A DNA stretch of 64,000 nucleotides from an uncultured Granulosicoccaceae bacterium (lineage in GTDB: Bacteria; Pseudomonadota; Gammaproteobacteria; Granulosicoccales; Granulosicoccaceae): contig CALLOA010000052.1 in NCBI GenBank assembly GCA_938005265.1, positions 1,408 through 65,407 on the forward strand, given 5' to 3'. The translations under genes were made by a program, and so were the position numbers. Positions 7,656 to 50,051 of the stretch are shown here, piece after piece. The notes beneath the pieces are model-generated. The model worked only from the letters and a program-made list of their open reading frames with translations, was not told the DNA's origin and did not search any database. Numbering within the stretch: position 1 is the first letter of the stretch; each line of letters starts with the position of its first letter.

Positions 7656-9143
7656 ATGATTAGTAACCTGGTTAACGGCCTTTCAGTCGCGTCGCAAAGC
7701 GGCAATTCACAGCCTGTATTCAATCCTGCTACTGGAGAACAGGTAGATGACCTGGCGCTTTCCAGTGTGGATGAGGTGAATCAGGCTATCGATGCTGCGG
7801 CTGCGGCAGCTCCTGCCTGGGCGGCCACTCCTCCCCTGAAAAGGGCAGGCATGATGTTCAAGTTTAACGAACTGCTGGGTAAGCGTGCTGATGACATAGC
7901 GCGTGCCATTTCAAGGGAGCATGGAAAAACCCATGATGATGCTCTGGGTGAAGTGCAGCGTGGCAAGGAGGTCGTTGAGTACGCCTGTGGGATCCCCAGT
8001 TTGCTCAAGGGCGAATTCTCAAGAAACGTCGGCCCTCAGATTGATTCGTTTTCGGATCGTCAACCACTGGGTGTCGTGGCTGGCATTACACCCTTCAATT
8101 TCCCGGCGATGGTGCCTCTGTGGATGTACCCGGTTGCGGTAGCCTGTGGAAACACTTTCATTCTGAAACCGTCGGAACGTGATCCCTCGGCGGTCAATCT
8201 CATTGCCGAGATTTTTCATGAAGCCGGCTTTCCACCCGGTGTACTGAATGTTGTACATGGCGATAAGACGGCGGTTGATACTATCCTTGATTCACCGATC
8301 ATCCAGGCAGTCAGCTTTGTTGGTTCTACACCCATTGCCGAGTACGTCTACCAGAGGGGTAGCGCGTCGGGTAAACGTGTTCAGGCTCTGGGTGGTGCAA
8401 AAAATCATATGGTGGTGTTGCCCGATGCCGATATGCAACAGGCTGCGGAAGCATTGATGGGGGCAGGTTATGGTTCAGCTGGTGAGCGTTGCATGGCGAT
8501 TTCGGTCGCAGTGCCGGTTGGTGAAAAAACAGCTGATCAATTGGTCGAAAAACTGGTGCCCATGGTCGAAGCGCTGAAAGTTGGTCCGGCAGATGATGCT
8601 GATGCCGAAATGGGGCCTGTCATTACCAGGGATGCCAAGGAGCGGATTTCAGGCCTCATAGATTCCGGTGTAAATCAGGGTGCTGAGTTATTGGTAGATG
8701 GCCGTAGTTTGAGTCTGCAGGGCTACGAGAATGGATATTTTCTGGGTGGTAGCCTGTTCGATAAGGTAACTACAGAAATGGATATCTACAAGCAGGAGAT
8801 TTTTGGCCCTGTGCTGTCTGTTGTCCGGGCCAATGATTATTCTGAAGCTGTTGATATGATAAACCGTCACGAGTACGGCAATGGCACTGCAATCTTTACA
8901 CGCGATGGGGATGCTGCCAGGGATTTCGCTGATCGAATCCAGATCGGAATGGTTGGGGTTAACGTGCCGATTCCAGTACCGGTCGCCTATCACAGTTTTG
9001 GTGGTTGGAAGCGCTCGCTTTTTGGTGATCACTCAATCTACGGGCCGGAGGGCGTTCACTTTTACACCCGTCTGAAGACAATTACTGCTCGCTGGCCCAG
9101 CGGTATCAAAGACGGCGCAGCCTACGCATTCCCGACGACCTGA
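7656..9143 (+). CDS. mmsA: CoA-acylating methylmalonate/malonate-semialdehyde dehydrogenase
   Basis: 495 aa from ATG 7656 (the ORF track start at 7569 is an upstream extension). ALDH motifs are VSFVGSTPIAEYV, catalytic GERCMA and EIFGPV. Confidence 0.85.
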   Translation: MISNLVNGLSVASQSGNSQPVFNPATGEQVDDLALSSVDEVNQAIDAAAAAAPAWAATPPLKRAGMMFKFNELLGKRADDIARAISREHGKTHDDALGEVQRGKEVVEYACGIPSLLKGEFSRNVGPQIDSFSDRQPLGVVAGITPFNFPAMVPLWMYPVAVACGNTFILKPSERDPSAVNLIAEIFHEAGFPPGVLNVVHGDKTAVDTILDSPIIQAVSFVGSTPIAEYVYQRGSASGKRVQALGGAKNHMVVLPDADMQQAAEALMGAGYGSAGERCMAISVAVPVGEKTADQLVEKLVPMVEALKVGPADDADAEMGPVITRDAKERISGLIDSGVNQGAELLVDGRSLSLQGYENGYFLGGSLFDKVTTEMDIYKQEIFGPVLSVVRANDYSEAVDMINRHEYGNGTAIFTRDGDAARDFADRIQIGMVGVNVPIPVPVAYHSFGGWKRSLFGDHSIYGPEGVHFYTRLKTITARWPSGIKDGAAYAFPTT

Positions 9144-9248
9144 GCCAGTTGACCCCGATCAAGCCCGGTTGCAAAAAGACTAACAGTGTTTGATAGCAGC
9201 CAGCCAGGTGATCGACAAGTCACATCACTGCCAAAAAAGGAGAGCCTG

Positions 9249-10496
9249 ATGGCCATTAACAGCAATATGAAGATCAACGGCGAACGCCTGTGGGATTCGC
9301 TGATGGAGATGGCGAAAATTGGCCCGGGTGTCGCTGGTGGCAACAATCGCCAGACACTGACTGATGATGATGCCAAAGGGCGTGCGTTGTTCCAGAATTG
9401 GTGTGAGTCAGCGGGTTGCACCATGGGGCTGGATCAAATGGGTACGATGTTCGCGCGACGCGAAGGTACCGACCCGGATGCTTTGCCGGTTTATGTGGGT
9501 AGTCATCTTGATACCCAGCCCACAGGTGGTAAGTATGATGGTGTGCTGGGTGTGCTTGCCGGTCTGGAGATCATTCGTATGCTTAATGATCTCAACATCA
9601 AGACGCGTCATCCGATTGTTGTGGTCAACTGGACCAATGAAGAGGGAACACGCTTCGCACCACCCATGGTTGCCAGTGGTGTATTTGCCGGTGTGCATAC
9701 GCTCGACTGGGCCTATGATCGCACCGACGCGGACGGCTGTAAGCTCGGTGACGAGTTGCAACGTGTGGGTTATGTGGGTGAGGAAAAGGTGGGCGAGCGC
9801 AAGATGCATGCGTTCTTCGAGCTGCATATCGAACAGGGCCCGATACTCGAAGCTGAAAACAAGGACATCGGTGTGGTCACGCATGGCCAGGGTCTTAACT
9901 GGTTGCAGGTGACCTTGAGCGGTAGAGAAAGTCATACCGGTTCAACTCCGATGCCGATGCGAGTTAACGCTGGTCTGGGTATGGCAAAAATAACGCAGCT
10001 GGTGGACGACATAGCCTGGGGGCACGCGCCTCATGCGGTCGGTGCCATAGGGCATTGCGATGTTTACCCGAATTCTCGAAACATCATTCCCGGCAAAGTT
10101 GTGTTCACCATCGATTTCCGGCATCCGGATAAGGCCGTGATTGCTGCGATGGAAACCCAATTGCGTGAAGGTGCTGAGAAAATAGTTGAGGATATCGGTT
10201 TGCAAATGGAAATCGAACAGGTGGGCGGTTTTGATCCGGTAGAATTCGACAAAGGCTGTGTTGAAAAAGTCCGTGCAGCAGCTGAGCGGCTTGGGTACAG
10301 CCACCAGGATATCGTATCTGGTGCCGGCCATGACGCCTGCTGGATCAATCGCGTAGCACCTACCTGCATGGTGATGTGCCCTTGTGTTGACGGGCTATCG
10401 CACAATGAGGCTGAGGAGATTACTCAGGAATGGTCAACAGCGGGTGCCAATGTTCTTTTCCATGCTGTTGTTGAGACTGCAGGAATTGTAGATTGA
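9249..10496 (+). CDS. M20-family N-carbamoyl amidohydrolase (probable beta-ureidopropionase)
   Basis: 415 aa from ATG 9249, with an AAGGAG Shine-Dalgarno at 9237-9242. VGSHLDTQPTGGKYDGVLGV is typical of the amidase, hydantoinase/carbamoylase family. It sits between mmsA and dihydropyrimidinase. Confidence 0.8.
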   Translation: MAINSNMKINGERLWDSLMEMAKIGPGVAGGNNRQTLTDDDAKGRALFQNWCESAGCTMGLDQMGTMFARREGTDPDALPVYVGSHLDTQPTGGKYDGVLGVLAGLEIIRMLNDLNIKTRHPIVVVNWTNEEGTRFAPPMVASGVFAGVHTLDWAYDRTDADGCKLGDELQRVGYVGEEKVGERKMHAFFELHIEQGPILEAENKDIGVVTHGQGLNWLQVTLSGRESHTGSTPMPMRVNAGLGMAKITQLVDDIAWGHAPHAVGAIGHCDVYPNSRNIIPGKVVFTIDFRHPDKAVIAAMETQLREGAEKIVEDIGLQMEIEQVGGFDPVEFDKGCVEKVRAAAERLGYSHQDIVSGAGHDACWINRVAPTCMVMCPCVDGLSHNEAEEITQEWSTAGANVLFHAVVETAGIVD

Positions 10497-38125: not shown

Positions 38126-39262
38126 ATGAAGAGCAAGCTCATTCTATTGCTCCTGGTGCTGACCTTGCTGGCAACGACGGGGTTTGTAACCGGTACTGCC
38201 CCGGCTGCAGAGCCTACTCTGTATCCATCTGAAGTTTTGTATCAGCAGCGCGACTCTTTCTGTCTGGGTAACCGACAAATGCTGGCGCAACTGACAGGTG
38301 TCATGGTTTCGTATGAAGATCTCGGCCATTTGTCTGTAGCGGCCCGTGAAGGCGAGTTGGGTCTTATCGGTATATTGGGTAACCCTGTAGCCAGTGAACG
38401 CCTGTTATTGCAGGAGCAGGTGACAAAATTACAAGCCCTTTCACCTGTGCCGTTACTGTTTGCCTCAGATGAGGAGTCGAGGGCGGTTCAACGTCTGGAT
38501 AAACTCATTTACAAGTTACCCTCCACTCGTCAGTCAATGTCGTCGGGCCCGGTGGTTGTTGAAGATATCTACCGGGACTATGCTCGAGAAATGCGAAGCC
38601 TTGGTTTTCACATGACCTTCGGGCCCGTCGTTGATGTTGGCAATGGTCCCGGCATTAAACGGCGCTCCTTTGGTAGTGATAGCACCACCGTTACCAGCCT
38701 CAGCAGTGCAGTCGTAAAAGGCCTGGCTGCCGGAGGTGTTTATTCGGTGATCAAACACTTTCCCGGTCATGGGGATGTCACTGTTGATTCGCATGAAGAT
38801 TTGCCACAGACGCCGGTGTTATCAGCGATGCAGGGACAGGTTTCTGTGTATCGCCGTTTGTTTGAGCAGTGGGGTGATTCGGTCGGTGTGATGGTCGGGC
38901 ATCTGGATGTTCCGGGTTTGACCAATGGCAAGCCCGCCAGTCTGTCGGCTGGGGCTATCACCTCCCTGTTACGCGATCAGCTGGGATTTACTGGAGTAGT
39001 CATAACTGACTCGCTGGATATGGGGGCTATTGCTCGAACCACAGGGCAAGCCTCTGCAGGCCTGAGAGCTATTCTGGCAGGGGCTGATATTGCGTTGGTA
39101 AGTCAATGGAGTGAACAGCAAAAGCTATTGAAAGAGCTTGAGCAGGCAGTGGCTTCCGGTGAGCTGGACTGGCGGCGAATAAAGCAGTCGGCTCTCAGGG
39201 TTCTTTCCCTGAAAGACCGACTCACCGGTAGTTCTTCTGCTGCTTCCCTGTGCGGCGCTTGA
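38126..39262 (+). CDS. Secreted glycoside hydrolase family 3 protein (NagZ-like beta-N-acetylhexosaminidase)
   Basis: 378 aa with signal peptide MKSKLILLLLVLTLLATTGFVTGTAPAAEP and GH3 N-domain motifs KHFPGHGD and VITDSLDMGA. Confidence 0.8.
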   Translation: MKSKLILLLLVLTLLATTGFVTGTAPAAEPTLYPSEVLYQQRDSFCLGNRQMLAQLTGVMVSYEDLGHLSVAAREGELGLIGILGNPVASERLLLQEQVTKLQALSPVPLLFASDEESRAVQRLDKLIYKLPSTRQSMSSGPVVVEDIYRDYAREMRSLGFHMTFGPVVDVGNGPGIKRRSFGSDSTTVTSLSSAVVKGLAAGGVYSVIKHFPGHGDVTVDSHEDLPQTPVLSAMQGQVSVYRRLFEQWGDSVGVMVGHLDVPGLTNGKPASLSAGAITSLLRDQLGFTGVVITDSLDMGAIARTTGQASAGLRAILAGADIALVSQWSEQQKLLKELEQAVASGELDWRRIKQSALRVLSLKDRLTGSSSAASLCGA

Positions 39263-42200
39263 TCAGGCGGTTGTATTCTCTTTCTTGCCTTTGCTTGACC
39301 GGGCTTTATTCTTTGCTGTTTTTCTGACGGTGTTTCCTGGCTCTGCCTTGCCACTGTTAGCGCTACGTTGCAGTACAGCTTTGAGAAATGGCGCGGTGCG
39401 TGAGCGGCGCGATTCTGAAATCTTCTCCGGTGTTCCCTTGGCAATCACTTTACCACCACCTTCGCCTCCTTCGGGCCCAAGGTCGAGTAACCAGTCAGCT
39501 TCGGCCATAATGTCCAGATTGTGCTCGATAACAACAACAGAATTGCCTGAATCCACCAGTTCGTGCAGAACATGCATTAGCCTTTCTACATCTGCCATAT
39601 GAAGACCGACAGTAGGTTCATCCAGAATGTAAAGAGTATGTTTGGCCGAAAGGCTGCGCCCACTGTTATCTTTGAGTATTGGTTTGGCTTTGGCCAGCTC
39701 TGAAACCAGTTTAATTCTCTGTGCCTCGCCACCGGATAAGGTCGGGCTTTGTTGGCCCAATGTCAGGTAGCCCAAGCCAACTGCCTGCAGTAGTTTCAGC
39801 GGATGATGAATTGATTGATGAGCTGAGAAAAATTCTACGGCTTCATCAACATCCATAGATAGTACATCGCCAATTGATTTGTTTCGGAATCTGACCGACA
39901 GGGTTTCACTATTAAATCGTTCACCGCCGCAAACATCACATGGAATTTTTACATCGGGCAGGAAATTCATTTCTATGCGCTTGATACCCTGGCCATCGCA
40001 TTCGTCACAACGACCACCTTTAACATTGAAGGAGAACCGGCTGGGCGAGAAGCCCCGTATCCTGGCTTCAGTTGCATCAGCGAAAACTCGACGGATGTTG
40101 TCCCAGAATCCGATGTAAGTAGCCGGGCATGAGCGTGGTGTTTTACCAATCGGGGTCTGGTCAACTTCAAGTACGCGGCTGATCGGTTGCCAACCTGTTA
40201 TGGCCTTGCAGCCGTGAAGTTTGCCAAGTTTCCTGTTGCGTGTTTTGCCATTGAGGCAACGCAGATTGTCATGCAATACCTCTCGTACCAGGGTGCTCTT
40301 GCCGGAACCGGATACGCCGCTGACACACACCAATGCACCCAGCGGTATTTCTGCATCAACAGATTTGAGGTTGTTCAGGCTGGCGGCTTCGATTTTCAGC
40401 CAGTGGTCAAAATTTTTGCGGCGCTGGTGTATTGGGTGTATAAGCGGGTTGGCAAGCATACGACCCGTTGCCGATTGCTTGTTCTTCTTGATTTTTGCAA
40501 CCGAACCCGTAGCTACAACTTCTCCCCCTCGAACACCGGCCCCCGGGCCTATGTCAATGATATGTTCGGCATTAAGAATGGTATCTTCGTCATGCTCGAC
40601 GACTACGATTGTATTGCCTTTTTCACCGAGTTTGTTGAGCGTGTCGAGTAGCATCCTGTTGTCACGCGGGTGTAAGCCAATCGTGGGTTCGTCCAGTATG
40701 TAACATACGCCACGAAGGTTGGAACCCAGTTGCGCAGCTAACCTGATACGTTGCGCTTCACCACCGCTTAAAGTAGGAGCTGCACGATCCAGAGTCAAAT
40801 AGGATAATCCCACTTCGTTCAGAAAGTGCAGGCGTGTGTTTAGCTCCGACAGAACATCATTTGCAATCGTCGCTTCACGTTTCGTGAGTTTCAGGTTGTC
40901 AAATGCTGCTACTGATTTTTCAACTGACAAGGCGGCGTAGTCAGCTATCGAGTTGTTTTTGAAAAAGACGTTTAATGATTCTTCACATAGGCGCTGTCCT
41001 TCGCACTGCGGGCAATCCACTTCGGCTTCGGTATCCATCCATCCGGCTTCTTCACCCGATTGTTCCTCATCAAACCCATCAACTACTCTTCCAGTGCCGA
41101 AGCACTCGGTACACCAGCCGTGCAAAGAGTTGTAGGAGAACATGCGCGGATCAAGTTCCCTGAAGCTGGTTTGGCATTCCGGGCAGGCGCGTGTAATCGA
41201 GAAAAGGATGGGTTTGGCGTTTTTCCTGTTACTCTCAGCTTCAAGCAATACGACGCCTTTGCCAAAATCCAGAGCACGCTGGAGCAATTGCACCAGGCTT
41301 TGCTCATCTTTGGGTTTTACCGTTAATTCGCCCACTGGAAGTTCTATGTTGTGCTCTCGAAAACGGTCCAATCGTGGCCAGTTGTCTGTGGGCAGGAAGT
41401 CACCATCAACCCGCAGTTCCGTAAAGCCTTTTTTCTGTGCCCATTTTGCCAGATCGGTGTAGTAACCTTTGCGGTTGGTTACCATAGGGGCATAGACACG
41501 AACACGTTTGTCCCGCCATTTTTTCATGATCTGGGCTGTGATCGCCTCGACTGTCTGAGCGCTTATCGGCACATCGCAATCCGGGCAATGTTGTACGCCG
41601 AGTTTGACAAACAGCAAACGCAGAAAGTGATAAATCTCCGTCATGGTTGCGACAGTACTTTTAAAACCCCCTCGGCTGGTGCGTTGTTCAATAGCGACTG
41701 TTGGTGGAATACCATGCAGAGCATCAACATCCGGTCGGGCAGCAGGCTGCACAAATTGCCGGGCGTAGGCGTTTAACGATTCCAGATACCGCCTCTGGCC
41801 CTCATTAAAAACGATATCGAAGGCGAGTGTGCTTTTACCACTGCCGCTCATACCGGTTATTACGGTGAATTTGTCTCGAGGTATTTCTACGTTAATATTC
41901 TTCAGATTATGTTCTCGTGCTTGCTGAATAACTATGTGATCTTCAGAAACAGCATCTCGCACCATATCTTTGCCTGCGGGAACAATCTGTTTTACGGGTT
42001 CTGCATAATTATTTGTATGCCCCCTTGATTGCAAATCTTTGATCGAACTGTCATAGCTAATTAAAGCATGAGCAGTGTCGCTATCGCTTTTTTTGCGCAG
42101 CGCTTGTGGTGTACCGGCAAATACCAATGCGCCGCCTGCATCCCCTCCATCGGGTCCCAGGTCAATGACCCATTCGGCATTGCCAATTACGTCCAGATTG

Positions 42201-45043
42201 TGCTCTATAACAATCAAGGAATGTCCGTGAGAAAGCAATTGTTGAAAAGCGCTTAGCAGTTTTTCAATGTCATGAAAATGCAAACCCGTGGTTGGTTCGT
42301 CGAATAGAAATAGAGTGCCTGTGGTGCTGCTAGTGCTTAACTTGGATTTTGCTGTGGTTTTTTTACTGGCACCTTTTTTGGAAATTTTCTTTTTTATGGT
42401 ACTTCGCTTTTTCAATCCCTTTCCCAGGTGAGCAGCAAGCTTCAACCGTTGGGCTTCGCCGCCACTCAGGGTGGGCACGGGTTGGCCTAGTTGCAAATAA
42501 CCAAGTCCAACGTCACTTAGAGGTTGCAAGGCTGTCATGATGTCAGCTTCATCTTTGAAGAATTCCAGACTTTCCTCGACGGTCATGTCAAGTACGTCGG
42601 CGATAGACTTACCATCAGACGAATACTCGGAAAAAACCTTTATTTCCAGTAGTTCAGGGCGATAGCGTCTACCCAGACATTCGCCACAACGTAGATAAAC
42701 GTCGCTGAGGAACTGCATTTCCACATGTTCAAAGCCATTGCCACTACAAGCAGGGCAGCGCATGCCGGAGTTAAAGCTGAATGCCCCTGCGGTTAGACCT
42801 CTGTTTTTTGCTTCCGGTTCCCGTTCGAATAGTTTTCTGATGCCATCGAACGCTCCGGTGTAGCTCACTGGATTTGAACGAGCGGATTTACCTATCGGTG
42901 TCTGGTCAACCAGAACAACATCGTCAATTGCCTCATGCCCATCGATTGACCGGTACTCTCCTGGTGATTCGACAGGCTGACCTTTCATTTTTTTCAGAGC
43001 GCGATAAAGTGTATCTTGCACGAGAGTGGATTTGCCAGAACCGCTGGGACCTGTAATACAGACAAGTTTACCGAGTGGAATTTGTAAAGACAGATTCTTT
43101 AAGTTGTGTGCACAGGCACCCTTTATGTGAATGGATTTTGTGTGTGCCTTGAGTGCCCCTGATGTATCAGTTGCCAGCAACGGTTTGTGTATGTCGGGAT
43201 TTCTATCGCTAATCATTGTCAGTCTTTTGCGACCACTAAGATAATCAGCCGTCAGGGATTTTTTATTTTTAAGCAGCTGCGCAGGGCTGCCGTTAAAAAC
43301 AATGTTGCCTCCAGCTTTGCCAGGCTCCGGGCCCATGTCTATGATGCGATCGGCTGCAAACATCAGCTGAGGGTCATGTTCGACAACGATTAACGTGTTC
43401 CCGGCATCTCTTAGTCGTTGCAAAACCTGTGTCACACGGTCCATGTCGCGAGCGTGCAGGCCGATGCTCGGTTCGTCCAGCACGAAAAGCGTGTTGACAA
43501 GAGATGTACCTATTGCCGTAGTCAGGTTAATACGTTGAACTTCGCCACCACTAAGTGTGCGAGACTGCCTGTCAAGTGAGAGATATCCCAGACCCACATC
43601 GACTAGGTAGCGTAATCGCGAGCGAACTTCATCAAGCAATAACTGCATGGCGTCGTCAAGATTGTTGTGTGGCCGGAAGTTGCGGAAAAACTGTTCTGCG
43701 TCGGTAATCGACAGAGTCATGATGTCATGCAGGCAAAATCCCGGCATCCTCAGCAATGTTTTTGTAGCAAGCGTGTTGTGCAAGGGTACAAACCGGTCGG
43801 CTGGTTTTATGACTTGCCTGACATCTTCCAGAGTCCCGACACGCCAATAAAGTGCCTCAGGCTTAAGTCTTGCGCCACCGCAGCTCTCACACTCTTCGTA
43901 ACTGCGGTATTTGGAAAGCATGACGCGTACATGCATCTTGTAGGCACGACCTTCTAGCCATTTAAAAAAGCCATTGATGCCGTACCAGGTAGTTTTGCGC
44001 CGGCGGTTTCTCGTGCCTTGGCCCTCGATAACCCAGCGTTGGTGTTTCGATGATAGCTTGCTCCAGGGTTTGTCCAATGGGACGCCTTCCTGTTCTGCAA
44101 ATTTTTCCATGTCGCGTTGGCAAATAGCATTGGTTTTAGTTTGCCAGACCTTGATTGCACCCTGTTTTAAAGTTAGTGATTCGTCTGGTATCACAAGGCC
44201 GTAGTCGATCCCCATAGTGCGGCCGAATCCACGACATGACTCACAGGCACCGATCGGTGAGTTAAAAGAAAACAGACTGGGTAGCGACTTTTGGAAGCTG
44301 AGATTGCAATTGCCGCATTGCAGTGCCGTTGTGTAGCGCTCACCTTTTAATGCTTCGCGGCTTTCATCAAGCGGGTAAACGGTTACATGCCCCTGGCCAT
44401 ATCGTAAGGCGGCTTCTATAGCTTCAATAAAGCGACCGCGGTTTTCATCATCAAGACGCAACCTGTCCTGTATGACTTCGAGAGTTTTGCCACGCCGTTG
44501 GTGAATGCGTGTGTAGCCCTGACGTGCCAGCCATTCCTCGATTTCTTCTTTCTTGAAGTTAGCTGGAACTGGCACGCTGAATGTGACCATTACTCTCTTA
44601 CCGGATTCACTGTCTGCAAGCCATTCGTCAGCGATGCTTTGAGCAGAGTCGTTGCTGACCTGTTTGCCACACCCATGGCAATAGAGGTCTGCTGCACGGG
44701 CGAACAGCATTTTTATGTAATCATTGAGCTCGGTCATGGTGCCGACGGTTGAACGGGAGGTGCGAACCGGATTGACCTGATCAATCGCAATAGCAGGCGG
44801 AATTCCTTCGATGCTGTCGACTTTGGGTTTGTCCATGCGATCGAGAAATTGGCGCGCATAGGGTGAGAATGTTTCTACATAACGACGCTGGCCTTCGGCA
44901 TAAATAGTGTCAAAAGCGAGCGTTGACTTACCCGAGCCACTGACCCCTGTAACTACCACCAACTCGCCCAGCGGCAGAGACAGATCCAGCGACTTCAGGT
45001 TGTTCTGATGAGCGTTTCTGATAACTATGGCGCGTTTTGGCAT
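39263..45043 (-). CDS. Tandem-duplicated UvrA-family ABC ATPase (two complete UvrA units, four nucleotide-binding domains)
   Basis: 1926 aa in an uninterrupted ORF. Walker A loops are at aa 33-41, 665-673, 1064-1072 and 1576-1584. LSGGE signatures are at aa 497, 859, 1425 and 1769. There are four LDEP/FDEP Walker B motifs and six paired CxxC zinc modules in canonical UvrA order. Unit 1 spans about aa 1-985 and unit 2 about aa 1036-1926. Confidence 0.9.
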   Translation of the reverse strand: MPKRAIVIRNAHQNNLKSLDLSLPLGELVVVTGVSGSGKSTLAFDTIYAEGQRRYVETFSPYARQFLDRMDKPKVDSIEGIPPAIAIDQVNPVRTSRSTVGTMTELNDYIKMLFARAADLYCHGCGKQVSNDSAQSIADEWLADSESGKRVMVTFSVPVPANFKKEEIEEWLARQGYTRIHQRRGKTLEVIQDRLRLDDENRGRFIEAIEAALRYGQGHVTVYPLDESREALKGERYTTALQCGNCNLSFQKSLPSLFSFNSPIGACESCRGFGRTMGIDYGLVIPDESLTLKQGAIKVWQTKTNAICQRDMEKFAEQEGVPLDKPWSKLSSKHQRWVIEGQGTRNRRRKTTWYGINGFFKWLEGRAYKMHVRVMLSKYRSYEECESCGGARLKPEALYWRVGTLEDVRQVIKPADRFVPLHNTLATKTLLRMPGFCLHDIMTLSITDAEQFFRNFRPHNNLDDAMQLLLDEVRSRLRYLVDVGLGYLSLDRQSRTLSGGEVQRINLTTAIGTSLVNTLFVLDEPSIGLHARDMDRVTQVLQRLRDAGNTLIVVEHDPQLMFAADRIIDMGPEPGKAGGNIVFNGSPAQLLKNKKSLTADYLSGRKRLTMISDRNPDIHKPLLATDTSGALKAHTKSIHIKGACAHNLKNLSLQIPLGKLVCITGPSGSGKSTLVQDTLYRALKKMKGQPVESPGEYRSIDGHEAIDDVVLVDQTPIGKSARSNPVSYTGAFDGIRKLFEREPEAKNRGLTAGAFSFNSGMRCPACSGNGFEHVEMQFLSDVYLRCGECLGRRYRPELLEIKVFSEYSSDGKSIADVLDMTVEESLEFFKDEADIMTALQPLSDVGLGYLQLGQPVPTLSGGEAQRLKLAAHLGKGLKKRSTIKKKISKKGASKKTTAKSKLSTSSTTGTLFLFDEPTTGLHFHDIEKLLSAFQQLLSHGHSLIVIEHNLDVIGNAEWVIDLGPDGGDAGGALVFAGTPQALRKKSDSDTAHALISYDSSIKDLQSRGHTNNYAEPVKQIVPAGKDMVRDAVSEDHIVIQQAREHNLKNINVEIPRDKFTVITGMSGSGKSTLAFDIVFNEGQRRYLESLNAYARQFVQPAARPDVDALHGIPPTVAIEQRTSRGGFKSTVATMTEIYHFLRLLFVKLGVQHCPDCDVPISAQTVEAITAQIMKKWRDKRVRVYAPMVTNRKGYYTDLAKWAQKKGFTELRVDGDFLPTDNWPRLDRFREHNIELPVGELTVKPKDEQSLVQLLQRALDFGKGVVLLEAESNRKNAKPILFSITRACPECQTSFRELDPRMFSYNSLHGWCTECFGTGRVVDGFDEEQSGEEAGWMDTEAEVDCPQCEGQRLCEESLNVFFKNNSIADYAALSVEKSVAAFDNLKLTKREATIANDVLSELNTRLHFLNEVGLSYLTLDRAAPTLSGGEAQRIRLAAQLGSNLRGVCYILDEPTIGLHPRDNRMLLDTLNKLGEKGNTIVVVEHDEDTILNAEHIIDIGPGAGVRGGEVVATGSVAKIKKNKQSATGRMLANPLIHPIHQRRKNFDHWLKIEAASLNNLKSVDAEIPLGALVCVSGVSGSGKSTLVREVLHDNLRCLNGKTRNRKLGKLHGCKAITGWQPISRVLEVDQTPIGKTPRSCPATYIGFWDNIRRVFADATEARIRGFSPSRFSFNVKGGRCDECDGQGIKRIEMNFLPDVKIPCDVCGGERFNSETLSVRFRNKSIGDVLSMDVDEAVEFFSAHQSIHHPLKLLQAVGLGYLTLGQQSPTLSGGEAQRIKLVSELAKAKPILKDNSGRSLSAKHTLYILDEPTVGLHMADVERLMHVLHELVDSGNSVVVIEHNLDIMAEADWLLDLGPEGGEGGGKVIAKGTPEKISESRRSRTAPFLKAVLQRSANSGKAEPGNTVRKTAKNKARSSKGKKENTTA

Positions 45044-45264
45044 CGGGCAGGGTAGGTTTGGAAAAAGGAAATCGCTATTGTCTCACATGTCAGCTGCGCA
45101 GGCTCGACGGCAACACCTTATACTTAACACTCTGCAGTAACTGTTTTGCCTGCAAAGCAGCGGTTGCATTCAGGGGGCACCATGAGTACTTTTCGCAGAT
45201 TATGCTTGTCGTTTCGTATGTTGGTCGCACCCTGATGGCCAGGGTTTTTCAACAGCCATATTCA

Positions 45265-45318
45265 CGGCAATTGAGAGTTTCAAGGCAACTGAGAGTTTCA
45301 CGGCAATTGAGAGTTCAG
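45265..45318. repeat. 18-bp direct repeat x3 immediately upstream of the PhyH-family gene (candidate operator / RBS-overlapping element)
   Basis: The array reads CGGCAATTGAGAGTTTCA AGGCAACTGAGAGTTTCA CGGCAATTGAGAGTTCAG and ends 4 nt before ATG 45323. It lies in the divergent region shared with the double-UvrA gene. Confidence 0.9.
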
Positions 45319-45322
45319 CAAA

Positions 45323-46090
45323 ATGAAAGATGACCGATGGGCCGATGACGTTGAGTTTTTCCATGAGAACGGTTTTGTTGTCATTCGGCAACTATTTAGT
45401 GAACAACGCGTCGATGAGCTGCTCGGTCTGGTTGAGCGCTCGCTAAATCCCCCTCTGGCCCCTGTAGAATTTGAAGCGGATGTGCACTACCCCGGAGCCC
45501 CGGTTTCGCGTCAGGCGCCGGGTGGTGAGACACCACGCCGCCTGTTGCATGCTTATAGCCGTGACCGCCTGTTCCAGAGTTGTGGTGATAGCGAAGTTGT
45601 TGTCACTATTCTTCAGAGATTGCTTGGCGCTGAGGCCGTCATGCTTTCGCAGAATCACCATAATTGCGTGATGACAAAATTCCCCGGATTCAGTAGTCGC
45701 ACCAGCTGGCATCAGGATATACGATACTGGAGCTTTGATCGTCCGGAGCTTATAAGTACCTGGTTGGCGTTGGGTGAAGAAACTGAAGAAAACGGTGGCT
45801 TACTGGTTATACCGGGTTCTCACAAACTGCAGCTTGATCGCGGGCGGCTTGATGCAGCGCTTTTTTTGCGTACCGATCTGGAGGAAAATCGCGAGCTGAT
45901 CGAGGGTGCGCGGGTGGTCGAAATGCAAGCTGGTGATATGCTGTTTTTTCACTCGAGGACCTTTCACGCGGCTGGTCAGAATTGTACAGCGCAGGTCAAG
46001 CGCTCATTGGTCTATACCTATCGTGCGGCAGATAATGCACCGATTCCAGAAACTCGCTCGGCGAATTTCCCGGATATCCCGGTATCCTGA
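45323..46090 (+). CDS. Phytanoyl-CoA dioxygenase (PhyH) family Fe(II)/2-oxoglutarate oxygenase
   Basis: 255 aa with the HxD facial-triad segment WHQDIRYW and a distal His in FFHSRTFHAAGQN. Confidence 0.8.
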   Translation: MKDDRWADDVEFFHENGFVVIRQLFSEQRVDELLGLVERSLNPPLAPVEFEADVHYPGAPVSRQAPGGETPRRLLHAYSRDRLFQSCGDSEVVVTILQRLLGAEAVMLSQNHHNCVMTKFPGFSSRTSWHQDIRYWSFDRPELISTWLALGEETEENGGLLVIPGSHKLQLDRGRLDAALFLRTDLEENRELIEGARVVEMQAGDMLFFHSRTFHAAGQNCTAQVKRSLVYTYRAADNAPIPETRSANFPDIPVS

Positions 46091-46962
46091 TGGAGCATTC
46101 GAATAACATTCAAGCCTGCGAAGTTCTGAACAGGCAGATACTGGGTGAGCTGTATGCGGCTAACGTGTGTGCTGTAGCCATGCCGGTTGCCGATCACCGT
46201 ACAGAACTGGGTGCGCTGGAATCACGGTCAGTTTCACGCATGGTCGATAAACGTCTGAAGGAGTTTTCCACGGGTCGCTTTTGTGCGCATGAAGCAGCGC
46301 GGGCGTTAGTGCAAACGACTGACGGCCGACCGGCTGTGGCAAATCTGGATGCGCATGGCCGGGAAATACCGAAGGCGTGGGATATAGCGGTTGGTCCGGA
46401 ACGAGAGCCTTGTTGGCCCGCTGATATCCGGGGCAGTATTACACACACCAGGCAAATCGCAGCAGCCGTGGTGACCAACGACCCCGCGTGCTACTCCCTG
46501 GGGCTCGATATTGAGCCGCTGCAACGTCTTGAGCAAGGAGTGATGAAAATCATTGCCGACCAGGATGAGTTGGCGGCAGCTTGTCTATTGCTTGAACAGC
46601 AGTTAAAGGCCGCGGATGACACAGTATTCGGGCAGGTGCAAGCCATGCCCGATACTGCAGCTTGTGTCGTGTTCAGTGCCAAGGAGAGTATTTTCAAATG
46701 TCTGTTTCCGGTGTACCGGCACTGGCTTGATTTTAGTGAAGTAAAGGTGTTGTTGAAGGAATTGTCAGTGACCAAAATAACTCCGGCCACAACCGCAGCT
46801 ACCGATGTAAGCGGTGCTGATGGCATTGAGTGCTGGCGCGGACATTTTGTGGCAGAGGTTGCCGGAGGCTGTGCCACAGCGATTGATGTCGGGCCACTGA
46901 GGGGCCAATTCGCCGTATTGCATGGCCTGGTCATCACAACAGCTGAGCTATCCGAGCATTAG
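46090..46962 (+). CDS. 4-prime-phosphopantetheinyl transferase, EntD/Sfp type
   Basis: 290 aa. The ATG overlaps the upstream TGA by 1 nt (TGATG). Motifs are WPADIRGSITHT and FSAKESIFK. Confidence 0.75.
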   Translation: MEHSNNIQACEVLNRQILGELYAANVCAVAMPVADHRTELGALESRSVSRMVDKRLKEFSTGRFCAHEAARALVQTTDGRPAVANLDAHGREIPKAWDIAVGPEREPCWPADIRGSITHTRQIAAAVVTNDPACYSLGLDIEPLQRLEQGVMKIIADQDELAAACLLLEQQLKAADDTVFGQVQAMPDTAACVVFSAKESIFKCLFPVYRHWLDFSEVKVLLKELSVTKITPATTAATDVSGADGIECWRGHFVAEVAGGCATAIDVGPLRGQFAVLHGLVITTAELSEH

Positions 46963-47219
46963 TTGGCTGTGCGGTTGTTTAATTCGCCGGCTTGCTGGAG
47001 CTAAAAAATGATGTGTGTTGGCATGTGATCTGCCGCGCCTATAGTCAAATCACCCCGACGGAAGCGCTTAGGCTTCAGGTAAACTACATTGTTGCTGATC
47101 GTCCACCCATCCGGTTGCGTAAAAACACCAGTTTCCAATGCATATAGACGATCGACTCCGACCTGATTGTCGGGAGGCGGCCAACACTACCCGGATTGCA
47201 TAGAAAGGATAAGAAATAC

Positions 47220-48281
47220 ATGACCGAATTGACTGCACAACAGCCGACTGCACAACAGCCGACTGATAAACAGCCCGGTATCACGCTCACTGCGCGTGAG
47301 GTATTCGGTATTGATTCGGACATGAAAGTCACGGCCTTTGCGGAACCGGATGAGCATGTCCCTCAGATCGATGAAGCCTACCGTTTCAATACAGATGTGA
47401 CTCTGGCGATCCTTTCGGGTTTTCAGTTTAACCGCCGGGTTCTGATTCAGGGTTATCACGGTACCGGCAAATCAACCCATATTGAGCAGGTAGCAGCGAG
47501 ACTGAACTGGCCCACGGTAAGGGTCAATCTTGATGGTCACATTACCCGTCTTGACCTGGTGGGTCGGGACGCCATCGTTTTACAGGACGGCCAGCAGATA
47601 ACGGAATTTCGCGAAGGCATTCTTCCTTGGTCATTGCAGCGACCCATGGCTCTGGTGTTTGATGAATTTGATGCAGGGCGTCCTGACGTCATGTTTGTTA
47701 TTCAGCGTATCCTTGAGCAAGACGGGAAATTTACTCTGCTTGACCAGAACCGGGTACTGACGCCACACAAATGGTTCCGCCTTTTTGCGACAGCAAATAC
47801 CATTGGTTTAGGTAATCTCGACGGTTTGTACCACGGCACCCAGTTACTGAACCAGGCGCAGATTGATCGCTGGAACATAGTTGCACGTCTTGATTACATG
47901 ACAACCGATGAGGAAGTGGAAATTGTGCTTTCCCGCGTGCCGTCATTGCGTGGCCGCAGCGATGGTGAAACACTGGTGAAATCAATGGTTGCTGTCGCTC
48001 AGATGACGCGCAGCGGATTTGCGTCCGGTGACGTATCTACCTTGATGTCGCCTCGAACGACAATTCACTGGGCAGAAAATATGGATATTTTCGATAACCT
48101 TGAAAGTTCATTTCGATTGTCATTCCTGAATAAATGTGATCCCGCTGAGCATTCGATCGTGGCTGAATACTTCCAGCGTGCTTTTAATCGGGAGCTTGAC
48201 GAATCCATTGCTTTGCAGGAATCAGCTAATGATGATGTTGCCGGCAGTGATGACGGCAGTGCTATCACTGCTGCACCGTAG
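47220..48281 (+). CDS. CobS-like MoxR-class AAA+ ATPase
   Basis: 353 aa from ATG 47220 with Walker A GYHGTGKST and Walker B LVFDEFDAGRPD. The N-terminus carries in-frame 15-bp repeats at 47232-47276 encoding TAQQP TAQQP TDKQP. Confidence 0.8.
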   Translation: MTELTAQQPTAQQPTDKQPGITLTAREVFGIDSDMKVTAFAEPDEHVPQIDEAYRFNTDVTLAILSGFQFNRRVLIQGYHGTGKSTHIEQVAARLNWPTVRVNLDGHITRLDLVGRDAIVLQDGQQITEFREGILPWSLQRPMALVFDEFDAGRPDVMFVIQRILEQDGKFTLLDQNRVLTPHKWFRLFATANTIGLGNLDGLYHGTQLLNQAQIDRWNIVARLDYMTTDEEVEIVLSRVPSLRGRSDGETLVKSMVAVAQMTRSGFASGDVSTLMSPRTTIHWAENMDIFDNLESSFRLSFLNKCDPAEHSIVAEYFQRAFNRELDESIALQESANDDVAGSDDGSAITAAP

Positions 48282-48293
48282 GGTCGAATTACC

Positions 48294-50051
48294 TTGCAGT
48301 TCATCGATCCGGCAAAAGCCGCTGCCATTGAGGCTCGCGCCCGGGCCCGAACCCGTCGTGTCGAGCGACATACGGCAGCCAGTTTACGTGCGTTGGCACA
48401 GCAGCCATCTGCCGAGTACAAGAGTAACCGTGTGCTGGTTGCCGGCGAACCCTTACGTTTTGCAGCGCCTTATCTGGTGGCTGATATTGAAAACCTGACA
48501 TTGCCGCAATCACGCGGTGTCGCGGACGCATTGGCGCTGCGTTTACGCTACAGCAACGCACAATTGCATCGTGAATTGCAGCCTCTGGAGCCACTGGCTC
48601 GCGTTATTTTCGATATTCTCGAACAGCTGCGCGCCGAGTCGCTGGCTGCTGATTCCATGCCTGGTTTGCGCGATAACCTGAATGCGGCCTTTGATCGCTG
48701 GTGTAGTGAGGCCCGTCAGAACGGTTTTGCGGAATCTGATTTGGGAATCCTGCTCTACACGCTGATTCATATGGTGAGGGCGCGGTTGATCCGCAACGTC
48801 GATAATGAAGATGTAGCTGCATTGATTGAAGCTACTCGCGCCAACATTGCACCACTGATCGGTACGCCTTTCTACCAATTGCCCAAAACGCGCGAGCGGC
48901 AACGCGATTATGCTGTGCATGCTGTGGCGATTGCCAACAGTCTGGCTGAATTGGTTGACCATGCAGAAGCCGCGCAGGACAACAAGACAAAACGACAGCA
49001 AAGACAGCTTGCCGCCTTGCCACCAGATTGGGATTTGCAGGAATCTCCGGACGAGCACGGTGAAGGTGGTGGCAAGGCTGTTGCGTCTTCTGAAGCTGAC
49101 GAGCTTGAGCTGGAAAATGCGGGTGACTACCACGTTTTCACACGTGAGTTTGATCAACAGGTAACACCGGATTCGCTATATCCGCACGCGCGTCTGAAAA
49201 GGTATCGACATCAGTTGGATCGTCTGGTAGCCGCACAATCAGTCAGTGTAAATCGACTGGCCTTCAGAATGCAGAGACTCTTTGCAACATTGCAGGATGA
49301 TGACTGGCACTTTGGCCAGGAAGAAGGCTGGCTGGATGCACGCCGTCTGACCCAGCTGGTGGCAACGCCATCGTACCGGCAGGTGTACTACCGCAACCGG
49401 CAAGTACCCCAGAGCGATGTGGTGGTGAGCTTCCTGATCGATACCTCGGGGTCGATGAAAACGCAACGTTACGAGGCTGTTGCGACTCTGGTTGATACGT
49501 ATTCCAGAGCACTGGAGCTTGCCGGTATCAAGTCCGAGGTACTTGGTTTTTCGACTGCCGGATGGAATGGCGGGCGGGTGATGGATGCATGGCGTCGGGC
49601 CGGCGAGCCTGACGATCCCGGGCGCCTTAATGAATTGCAACACATTGTCTATAAAAGCGCTGATAGCACCTGGCGGCAGTCCCGGCTGACCATAGCCGCC
49701 ATGATGGAAACACTTCATTATCGCGAAGGTATTGATGGTGAGGCGCTATTGTGGGCCTACAAGCGCCTGCAGGCACGCGGTGAAACACGCCGCTACCTTG
49801 TCATGGTATCTGATGGAGCACCGATGGACGCCGCAACCGGAAACAGTAATCGCGAAGGGTTCCTGCTCGATCACCTGGTCGCAGTTGCCGAGCATATTGA
49901 CAGACGCTCGCCCGTACATATCGGCTGCATCAGCGTAGATCTGGATACCAGCCATTTCGTCACCAATTCTGTGTCGGCCGATTTGCGTGGCACACTGGGA
50001 AATACGACCTACCGTTTGCTTGATCAACTCTTTAGCAGTCGCCGGCACTGA
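48294..50051 (+). CDS. CobT-like vWA-domain protein (paralogue of 123-2054)
   Basis: 585 aa with a TTG start 12 nt after the CobS-like stop (start uncertain). The vWA MIDAS is DTSGSM, followed by VSDGAP. It shares YxVFTREFD and [10 protein letters not shown] blocks with the first CobT-like protein and has a much shorter acidic tract. Confidence 0.75.
   Translation: MQFIDPAKAAAIEARARARTRRVERHTAASLRALAQQPSAEYKSNRVLVAGEPLRFAAPYLVADIENLTLPQSRGVADALALRLRYSNAQLHRELQPLEPLARVIFDILEQLRAESLAADSMPGLRDNLNAAFDRWCSEARQNGFAESDLGILLYTLIHMVRARLIRNVDNEDVAALIEATRANIAPLIGTPFYQLPKTRERQRDYAVHAVAIANSLAELVDHAEAAQDNKTKRQQRQLAALPPDWDLQESPDEHGEGGGKAVASSEADELELENAGDYHVFTREFDQQVTPDSLYPHARLKRYRHQLDRLVAAQSVSVNRLAFRMQRLFATLQDDDWHFGQEEGWLDARRLTQLVATPSYRQVYYRNRQVPQSDVVVSFLIDTSGSMKTQRYEAVATLVDTYSRALELAGIKSEVLGFSTAGWNGGRVMDAWRRAGEPDDPGRLNELQHIVYKSADSTWRQSRLTIAAMMETLHYREGIDGEALLWAYKRLQARGETRRYLVMVSDGAPMDAATGNSNREGFLLDHLVAVAEHIDRRSPVHIGCISVDLDTSHFVTNSVSADLRGTLGNTTYRLLDQLFSSRRH

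Follow-up and report, generated by a model that had tools for sequence, protein, structure and literature searches.

The 64,000-nucleotide stretch of DNA analyzed here (the window), from an uncultured Granulosicoccaceae bacterium, encodes a protein of 1926 amino acids (aa) in which two UvrA units are joined head to tail in one chain. Bacterial nucleotide excision repair (NER) is usually pictured with a symmetric UvrA homodimer, and it is still debated how a symmetric dimer selects one strand and leaves just one UvrB at the lesion. The alignments described below showed that the two predicted units of the double UvrA are complementary rather than equivalent, with the accessory domains divided between them throughout the family. 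This family of single-chain double UvrAs is large and conserved, is found in beta- and gammaproteobacteria and in scattered other phyla, and is annotated simply as UvrA. We propose, with a probability of roughly 0.55, that the protein acts as an asymmetric single-chain damage sensor which hands lesions to UvrB, probably in an accessory role beside a canonical uvrA.

The open reading frame (ORF) is located at 39263..45043 on the minus strand, as are all features of the protein given below. It starts with ATG and is uninterrupted over 5781 nt, encoding 1926 aa and a stop codon, and its assignment as a single-chain tandem UvrA was based on the translation, UvrA models and a homologue search. Four Walker A motifs were found by regular expression, starting at aa 33 (GVSGSGKS, aa 33-40, 44924..44947), 665 (GPSGSGKS, aa 665-672, 43028..43051), 1064 (GMSGSGKS, aa 1064-1071, 41831..41854) and 1576 (GVSGSGKS, aa 1576-1583, 40295..40318). 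The LSGGE signatures are at aa 497, 859, 1425 and 1769, and the H-loops at aa 552, 944, 1480 and 1837. The regular expression returned three Walker B motifs (aa 519, 911 and 1804) and missed the fourth, CYILDEPT at about aa 1447, which was read from the translation and the alignment with E. coli UvrA. The 12 CxxC motifs form six pairs in UvrA order (122/243, 267/385, 763/786, 1153/1287, 1311/1344 and 1679/1702) and align with the E. coli zinc modules, giving three modules per unit including Zn3. The C-terminal zinc finger/hairpin Zn3, located by regular expression and alignment, spans aa 763-789 in unit 1 (42677..42757) and aa 1679-1705 in unit 2 (39929..40009). All four predicted ATPase sites and both Zn3 hairpins were shown to be intact.

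The NCBIfam UvrA equivalog NF001503 matched four stretches of the protein at 2060.9 bits (cut-off 1147), and TIGR00630 matched four stretches at 2004.3 bits (cut-off 729.8). PDB chains of UvrA were matched by unit 1 at E=1e-217 and by unit 2 at E=1e-266. The curated cut-offs are exceeded, and the 1926-aa protein is a member of the UvrA family far beyond chance. The initial annotation, made from the letters of the window, had described an uninterrupted ORF of this length, four copies each of Walker A, LSGGE and Walker B with six CxxC pairs in UvrA order, and a covalent head-to-tail tandem of two UvrA units. The ORF and the motifs were all recovered here by regular expression, translation and alignment, and the models together with the PDB and E. 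coli alignments confirmed the tandem.

Each half was aligned separately with E. coli UvrA taken from NC_000913.3. According to the PDB and E. coli alignments, unit 1 (aa 1-985, 42089..45043) consists of a first nucleotide-binding domain (NBD-I), a divergent UvrB-binding domain, an insertion domain (ID) and a second nucleotide-binding domain (NBD-II) with the Zn3 hairpin, while unit 2 (aa 1036-1892, 39368..41938) consists of NBD-I, a canonical UvrB-binding domain and NBD-II with the Zn3 hairpin, and has no ID. Identity to E. coli UvrA amounts to 44% for unit 1 and 48% for unit 2. Between the two units it is just 38%, suggesting an old fusion rather than a recent duplication.

The sole ID of the protein is in unit 1 (aa 271-384, 43892..44233; Pfam and PDB alignment). 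The Pfam ID model UvrA_DNA-bind matched unit 1 only, at 59 bits, and the domain aligned across the whole M. tuberculosis (E about 1e-19) and B. stearothermophilus insertion domains, with the Arg-rich hairpin RNRRRKTTWYG retained. In unit 2, about 29 aa between the two CxxC of Zn module 2 stand in place of E. coli residues ~296-404, and the alignment of unit 2 with 9gxk_A covered residues 21-305 and 424-961, skipping the ID. The replacement is a strongly acidic loop, RVVDGFDEEQSGEEAGWMDTEAEVD (aa 1315-1343, 41015..41101), defined by alignment and by the composition of the loop in the family. The UvrB-binding domains differ in the other direction. In unit 1 (aa 126-242, 44318..44668) the domain lacks 15 aa that correspond to E. 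coli 176-190, and Pfam UvrA_inter matched it with 31 bits over profile positions 65-107 only, whereas in unit 2 (aa 1157-1286, 41186..41575) the full UvrA_inter profile was matched with 101.8 bits. The Pfam parse found the ID model in unit 1 only and a full UvrA_inter in unit 2 only. The two units had been called complete in the initial annotation; this held for unit 1, which has every UvrA domain although its UvrA_inter match is partial, and did not hold for unit 2, which has no ID.

This arrangement is conserved. A search over 5.8 billion proteins returned at least 120 protein clusters with 62-100% identity to the window protein and lengths of 1781-2020 aa, and all matches listed but one cover 94-100% of it. 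We refer to the 120 clusters among the matches listed as close relatives; they include Granulosicoccus antarcticus (on a 7.78-Mb contig) and several Granulosicoccus metagenome-assembled genomes (MAGs). Four Walker A motifs (nine clusters with a fifth regular-expression match), four signatures (one with a fifth) and four Walker B motifs were present in 120/120 close relatives, and four H-loops in 100/120. Unit 2 is without an ID in 118/120, the CxxC of its Zn module 2 being just 25-30 residues apart. On average the substitute loop has 26 aa, of which 9.5 are Asp/Glu and 1.5 Lys/Arg, and the motif [FY]DEE[QHE]xGEE is present in 98 of these 118. The mean identity of the UvrB-binding domain to that of the window protein is 53% for unit 1 and 57% for unit 2; the domains are about equally conserved, suggesting that the divergent copy in unit 1 is constrained and not decaying.

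A genome scan with one genome per GTDB species gave the same picture. Of 600 pattern matches, 598 were confirmed as relatives, so there are at least 598 loci. The best 80 of these have 53-66% identity over aa 1 to about 1900, and all 80 keep the ID in unit 1 and the acidic loop in unit 2 (25-40 aa, median 27, with 8.9 Asp/Glu versus 2.25 Lys/Arg; acidic in 80/80). The carriers among the best 80 are gammaproteobacterial and betaproteobacterial (Granulosicoccaceae, Gilvimarinus, Saccharospirillum, Teredinibacter, Aquisalimonas, Arhodomonas, Steroidobacteraceae, Bordetella, Achromobacter, Cupriavidus on chromosome 2, Pandoraea, Rubrivivax, Aromatoleum and Castellaniella), together with MAGs labelled Nitrospirota, Verrucomicrobiia, Spirochaetaceae, Chitinispirillaceae and Thermodesulfobacteriota. 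Isolates of Granulosicoccus, Bordetella, Cupriavidus, Ralstonia and Pandoraea are among the carriers of the full-length protein. At a coverage of at least 80% of the window protein, PLSDB contains 214 records; the best 25 are all Ralstonia records of about 1.7-2.2 Mb, and a 1.8-Mb Ralstonia solanacearum replicon carries a 5838-nt 'uvrA' encoding 1945 aa. The window protein shares with this family full-length collinearity, four ATPase sites, an ID in unit 1 only and the acidic loop in unit 2.

Between the units lies a linker (aa 986-1035, 41939..42088) that was delimited in the alignment of relatives. It is variable in sequence and length among the close relatives (20% identity, 23% gaps), and its excess beyond the canonical termini is about 35 residues in the window protein, with a median of 27 in the family and of 21 when all doubles are taken together.

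Regulatory sequences in some relatives point to DNA damage. Perfect LexA boxes were found upstream of 6/77 orthologous loci, compared with about 0.3 expected from the background rate. They are AT-rich, lie 64-163 bp upstream and belong to two Bordetella, one Achromobacter, two Cupriavidus and one Pandoraea locus (L023, L026, L039, L062, L078 and L081; example box CTGTTTATATATACAG). These putative LexA sites tie the double-UvrA family to the DNA-damage response in those lineages, and their restriction to these four genera suggests that SOS control of the family is lineage-specific. Among the roles suggested by the initial annotation was a DNA-surveillance ATPase unrelated to classical NER; the canonical UvrB-binding domain of unit 2 and the LexA boxes at 6/77 loci do not favor this.

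How the two units might work together is suggested by the cryo-electron microscopy of M. tuberculosis UvrA, where a 'division of labor' was described within the homodimer: one 'recognition-ID' holds the flipped lesion, and binding of the first UvrB to the UvrB-binding domain of the other protomer releases that protomer's 'support-ID' (PMC11985968). By analogy, the double UvrA looks like an asymmetric state of the canonical dimer fixed in the gene. The two units would most likely fold onto each other like the protomers of a normal UvrA dimer, with the flexible linker of about 35 residues tethering them. The lesion would be held by unit 1 as the recognition protomer, corresponding to the 'recognition-ID' protomer in the UvrA2-UvrB1-DNA complex of M. 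tuberculosis. Unit 2 would dock UvrB, like the protomer whose 'support-ID' is displaced, except that here there would be no support-ID to displace. Lesions would then be fed into UvrB/UvrC excision. A stricter version, in which the protein is a hard-wired asymmetric intermediate with a lesion-holding unit 1 and a UvrB-loading unit 2 whose support-ID has been replaced by a DNA-repelling or DNA-mimicking acidic loop, is offered only tentatively, and we think it somewhat doubtful. If true, it would mean that fused UvrAs have been cut to one ID at least twice, in opposite unit order (BI/B- and B-/BI, in the typing described below), so that the reduction to one ID would be convergent between the fusions of the window protein's type and those of the Chlamydia/Planctomycete type. 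It would also provide independent support for a division-of-labor damage hand-off and imply a UvrA-UvrB 1:1 working complex.

Several points weigh against the proposed asymmetric damage sensor. Canonical UvrA protomers are proposed to part from each other at hand-off, and a covalent fusion cannot do so fully. Unit 1 has a conserved UvrB-binding domain that may still engage UvrB, or some other partner, and if this domain works, the picture of one UvrB only may be wrong. The divergent intergenic region upstream of the window gene (45044..45322, 279 bp, shared with the PhyH-PPTase pair described below) contains no LexA box of the form CTGT-N8-ACAG even with one mismatch, and the window gene is, on this evidence, not predicted to be under SOS control through a classical LexA box. 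Finally, in the PDB alignment the position of the conserved M. tuberculosis Tyr323 (PMC11985968) is occupied by Ile307 in the ID of unit 1; with the clamping tyrosine replaced, this ID may not read lesions as a canonical ID does.

The architecture is neither unique nor newly noticed, and fusions of this kind are widespread. A fused UvrA has been explicitly described in Planctomycetes, where it was detected together with UvrB, UvrC and UvrD (PMC8567305). In C. trachomatis, uvrA is CT333, a gene of 5361 bp encoding 1786 aa in which five transposon insertions were tolerated (PMC6686042), and NCBIfam holds a model of 1809 positions for the long chlamydial UvrA (NF001885/PRK00635). The window protein scored 1120.9 bits against this model, below the cut-off of 3054, and is therefore outside that family. 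These three sources agree with the statement in the initial annotation that tandem UvrA paralogues had already been noted, and its remark that no function is known to have been assigned to them also stands: no functional or structural study of a double UvrA was found in the literature searched. A five-class scheme considered for UvrA was set aside, as it concerns Cho and not UvrA. What is new here is that the two units have lost accessory domains in a complementary way, that the acidic loop is conserved, that doubles are widespread and of multiple origins, and that some orthologues have LexA boxes.

Compared with canonical class I UvrA (E. coli; 2R6F, 3PIH, 3ZQJ and 9GXK), each unit of the window protein has the same full ABC core, three Zn modules with the Zn3 hairpin and a UvrB-binding domain, and unit 1 also has the ID. 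It differs in being one 1926-aa chain with non-identical units instead of a homodimer of ~940-aa chains, in the acidic loop that replaces the ID of unit 2 and in the divergent UvrB-binding domain of unit 1. The fused UvrAs of Planctomycetes and Chlamydiae also lack one of the two IDs according to length-based typing, but in Candidatus (Ca.) Clavichlamydia (P0216) and the Planctomycetota representatives it is unit 1 that is without the ID (B-/BI), whereas in the window protein it is unit 2 (BI/B-), and the two types form separate clades in the tree of units. From these comparisons, the two kinds of double look like independent fusions. The 1945-aa Ralstonia UvrA and the Cupriavidus proteins L062 and L081 belong to the family of the window protein, with 55% identity over the full length, and are likewise encoded by stand-alone genes; the Cupriavidus proteins have the same unit order. 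In contrast to the window gene, which is core chromosomal and has no LexA box, the Ralstonia and Cupriavidus genes are on a secondary replicon, and those of Cupriavidus have a perfect LexA box. Class II UvrAs (D. radiodurans UvrA2, DrrC and Ecm16) are also UvrA paralogues with an intact ABC core and an unclear repair role. They are defined by the loss of the UvrB-binding domain and Zn module 1 (PMC9328131, PMC3167621) and are single-length, whereas both units of the window protein keep these two elements. Double class II proteins (-I/-I) exist but form clades apart from that of the window protein.

To survey double UvrAs at large, unit 2 served as a phmmer query against 1.84 billion representatives of 50%-identity clusters, and the best 150 matches were examined. 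At least 105 of these 150 clusters are double-length with four well-spaced Walker A motifs. Each unit was typed by its coverage of the E. coli UvrB-binding domain (B) and ID (I), a length-based measure. The type of the window protein, BI/B- (unit 1/unit 2), was the most frequent with 35 clusters, followed by BI/BI (32), -I/-I (17), BI/Bi (6) and B-/BI (5), and ten clusters have other mixed architectures. The double-UvrA clusters include Fibrobacterales, Planctomycetota, Ca. Kinetoplastibacterium (with a genome of 0.82 Mb) and Ca. Clavichlamydia (B-/BI). Two more distant representatives of the window protein's family were typed 'BI/BI', with a full UvrA_inter match in unit 2 only. The extra ~80-95 aa in their unit 2 gave no separate Pfam ID match, the ID match being confined to unit 1, which makes the length-based 'I' call in their unit 2 uncertain. 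In a neighbor-joining tree of the separated units, unit 1 of the window protein falls in a clade of 47 consisting of unit-1 sequences only, and unit 2 in a clade of 52 consisting of unit-2 sequences and a few single-length entries. Doubles of class II and of the Chlamydia/Planctomycete type are placed elsewhere. Although the tree is crude, it suggests a single old fusion for the family of the window protein and several independent fusions overall. Among the typed matches, P0122 (2334 aa) and P0127 (2343 aa) are still longer UvrA-family proteins, typed BI/BI, with about 400 additional aa. P0193, with 914 aa and 62% identity to unit 2, is a possible natural split version; it lies on a 3.1-kb contig and is thus uninformative.

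The alternative that survives best is that the double UvrA is the only UvrA of its organism and performs all of the housekeeping NER; we regard this as unlikely. In Planctomycetes, and also in Chlamydiae, the fused UvrA appears to play that role, and the 1786-aa gene is the annotated uvrA of C. trachomatis (PMC6686042), but these fusions have the opposite unit order and belong to separate clades. A relative is retained in the 0.82-Mb genome of Ca. Kinetoplastibacterium, and the window gene is in a conserved core-genome neighborhood with no other uvrA within the 64-kb window. However, with 44% and 48% identity to E. coli UvrA, units 1 and 2 do not look like a vertically inherited gammaproteobacterial uvrA; canonical UvrAs of Gammaproteobacteria resemble the E. 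coli protein much more closely. In C. metallidurans, uvrA1 is on CHR1 and uvrA2 (Rmet_4549) on CHR2 (PMC2864759). The genome scan placed the double-UvrA family on chromosome 2 in Cupriavidus sp. TMH.W2, and Rmet_4549 is a candidate counterpart by its replicon location. Given the uvrA2 of Cupriavidus beside a canonical uvrA1, the location on secondary replicons in Cupriavidus and Ralstonia, and the dissimilarity of both units to a vertical gammaproteobacterial uvrA, an accessory role is more likely than a sole housekeeping role, by roughly 3:1.

As a second alternative, the protein would work like class II UvrAs (DrrC, Ecm16), as an ATPase that clears DNA independently of UvrB, stripping off intercalators or other ligands and so protecting against toxins. 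The window protein is probably a UvrA paralogue, class IIa UvrAs give ATP-dependent, NER-independent resistance to echinomycin (PMC9328131), and a 4'-phosphopantetheinyl transferase (PPTase) gene is divergent upstream of the double uvrA both here and in G. antarcticus. Nevertheless, both units keep the UvrB-binding domain, which is canonical in unit 2, and Zn module 1; there is neither a biosynthetic cluster around the gene nor a conserved neighbor across the 80 loci; and the LexA boxes of the relatives point to a damage response and not to self-resistance. Since class II is defined by the loss of the UvrB-binding domain and the biosynthetic context is missing, a drug-clearing role is less likely than the damage-sensing role, and we consider it improbable.

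An anti-phage function, for example in the MADS system, was considered because PADLOC models matched the double UvrA at 498.9 bits (mad3) and 211.4 bits (mad8), and was rejected as very improbable: the matches cover only the ABC nucleotide-binding domains (aa 646-953 and 1551-1883), in keeping with a shared UvrA-type ancestry, the neighbors are housekeeping genes with no mad genes among them and none conserved in the 80 loci, and 9/10 neighboring proteins had no defence-model match at E<=1e-5, the tenth, a CobS-like AAA protein, giving a weak IetA match of 26 bits. The mad3 and mad8 ATPases of MADS are evidently UvrA-like, as far as these profile matches go, and matches of this strength mean that defence finders could wrongly flag UvrAs, whether ordinary or double. 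A false joining of two adjacent uvrA-like genes through an assembly or sequencing error, for which nothing but the unusual length speaks and which would be expected at the linker, was ruled out to a negligible residue, because the frame is continuous through the variable linker in all relatives found (120 clusters, at least 598 loci and complete isolate genomes, from independent assemblies) and halves of 38% identity do not come from a recent tandem mis-assembly.

If the double UvrA is indeed an asymmetric damage sensor, it provides a ready-made system, natural and widespread, in which the 'protomers' differ, one having the DNA-clamping ID and the other a canonical dock for UvrB. The single chain would let each ATPase site, each UvrB-binding domain and the lone ID be mutated separately, which is impossible in a homodimer. 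The label 'excinuclease ABC subunit UvrA' carried by all such genes hides a distinct, probably accessory family.

Unit 1 has an extra insert at aa 400-436 relative to E. coli UvrA. A Lys/Ser-rich low-complexity insert found by alignment in NBD-II of unit 1 (aa 875-906, 42326..42421), between the signature and Walker B, is lineage-specific, with 60% gaps at the site among relatives. The basic low-complexity C-terminal tail (aa 1893-1926, 39266..39367) is likewise lineage-specific and is lacking in 93% of relatives. In one close relative, P0075 (2020 aa), long PDAGR/LDAGR pentapeptide repeats were observed within NBD-II of unit 1 and in the inter-unit linker, suggesting that the NBD-II site and the linker tolerate large low-complexity insertions. 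The Lys/Ser insert of the window protein occupies a different NBD-II loop from these repeats.

The double uvrA stands alone in the window. Nearby are a nagZ-like GH3 gene, an amidase gene, a Rieske oxygenase gene and a divergent PhyH-PPTase pair; farther out are cobS/cobT and leuS, with argS and an RNB-domain nuclease gene upstream, which is a core-genome context. No second uvrA was found within the 64-kb window, and neither uvrB nor uvrC among the window ORFs of 550 aa or more, in line with the initial annotation, which had seen no uvrB or uvrC nearby and no LexA box in the 279 bp upstream. No match to the sigma-70 consensus was found in 45044-45322 either. No conserved operon partner was identified, as the commonest flanking family occurs in 7/80 related loci. 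The divergent PhyH-PPTase-leuS arrangement is shared with G. antarcticus (L001; pair at 8311-9767), while the pair is not found in more distant relatives.

The nagZ-like GH3 gene (38126..39262, plus strand) is convergent with the double uvrA, and the stop codons of the two genes abut at 39262/39263 with no spacer, leaving no room for separate terminators. On the other side, the pair at 45323-46962, divergent from the double uvrA, encodes a PhyH-family dioxygenase and an Sfp-type PPTase. An 18-bp unit, TTCACGGCAATTGAGAGT, is repeated in 3.1 tandem copies with 89% match at 45261-45315, just upstream of the PhyH-family start (45323). The repeat was not found in the equivalent intergenic region of G. 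antarcticus, and it could be an iterated regulator-binding site. The window also contains two CobT-like genes (643 aa and 585 aa), at 123-2054 and 47196-50051. The second forms a pair with a CobS-like AAA gene and lies between the genes for the PPTase and leuS, a place that is empty in G. antarcticus (L001); the cobaltochelatase-like CobST module at 47196-50051 is duplicated or inserted.

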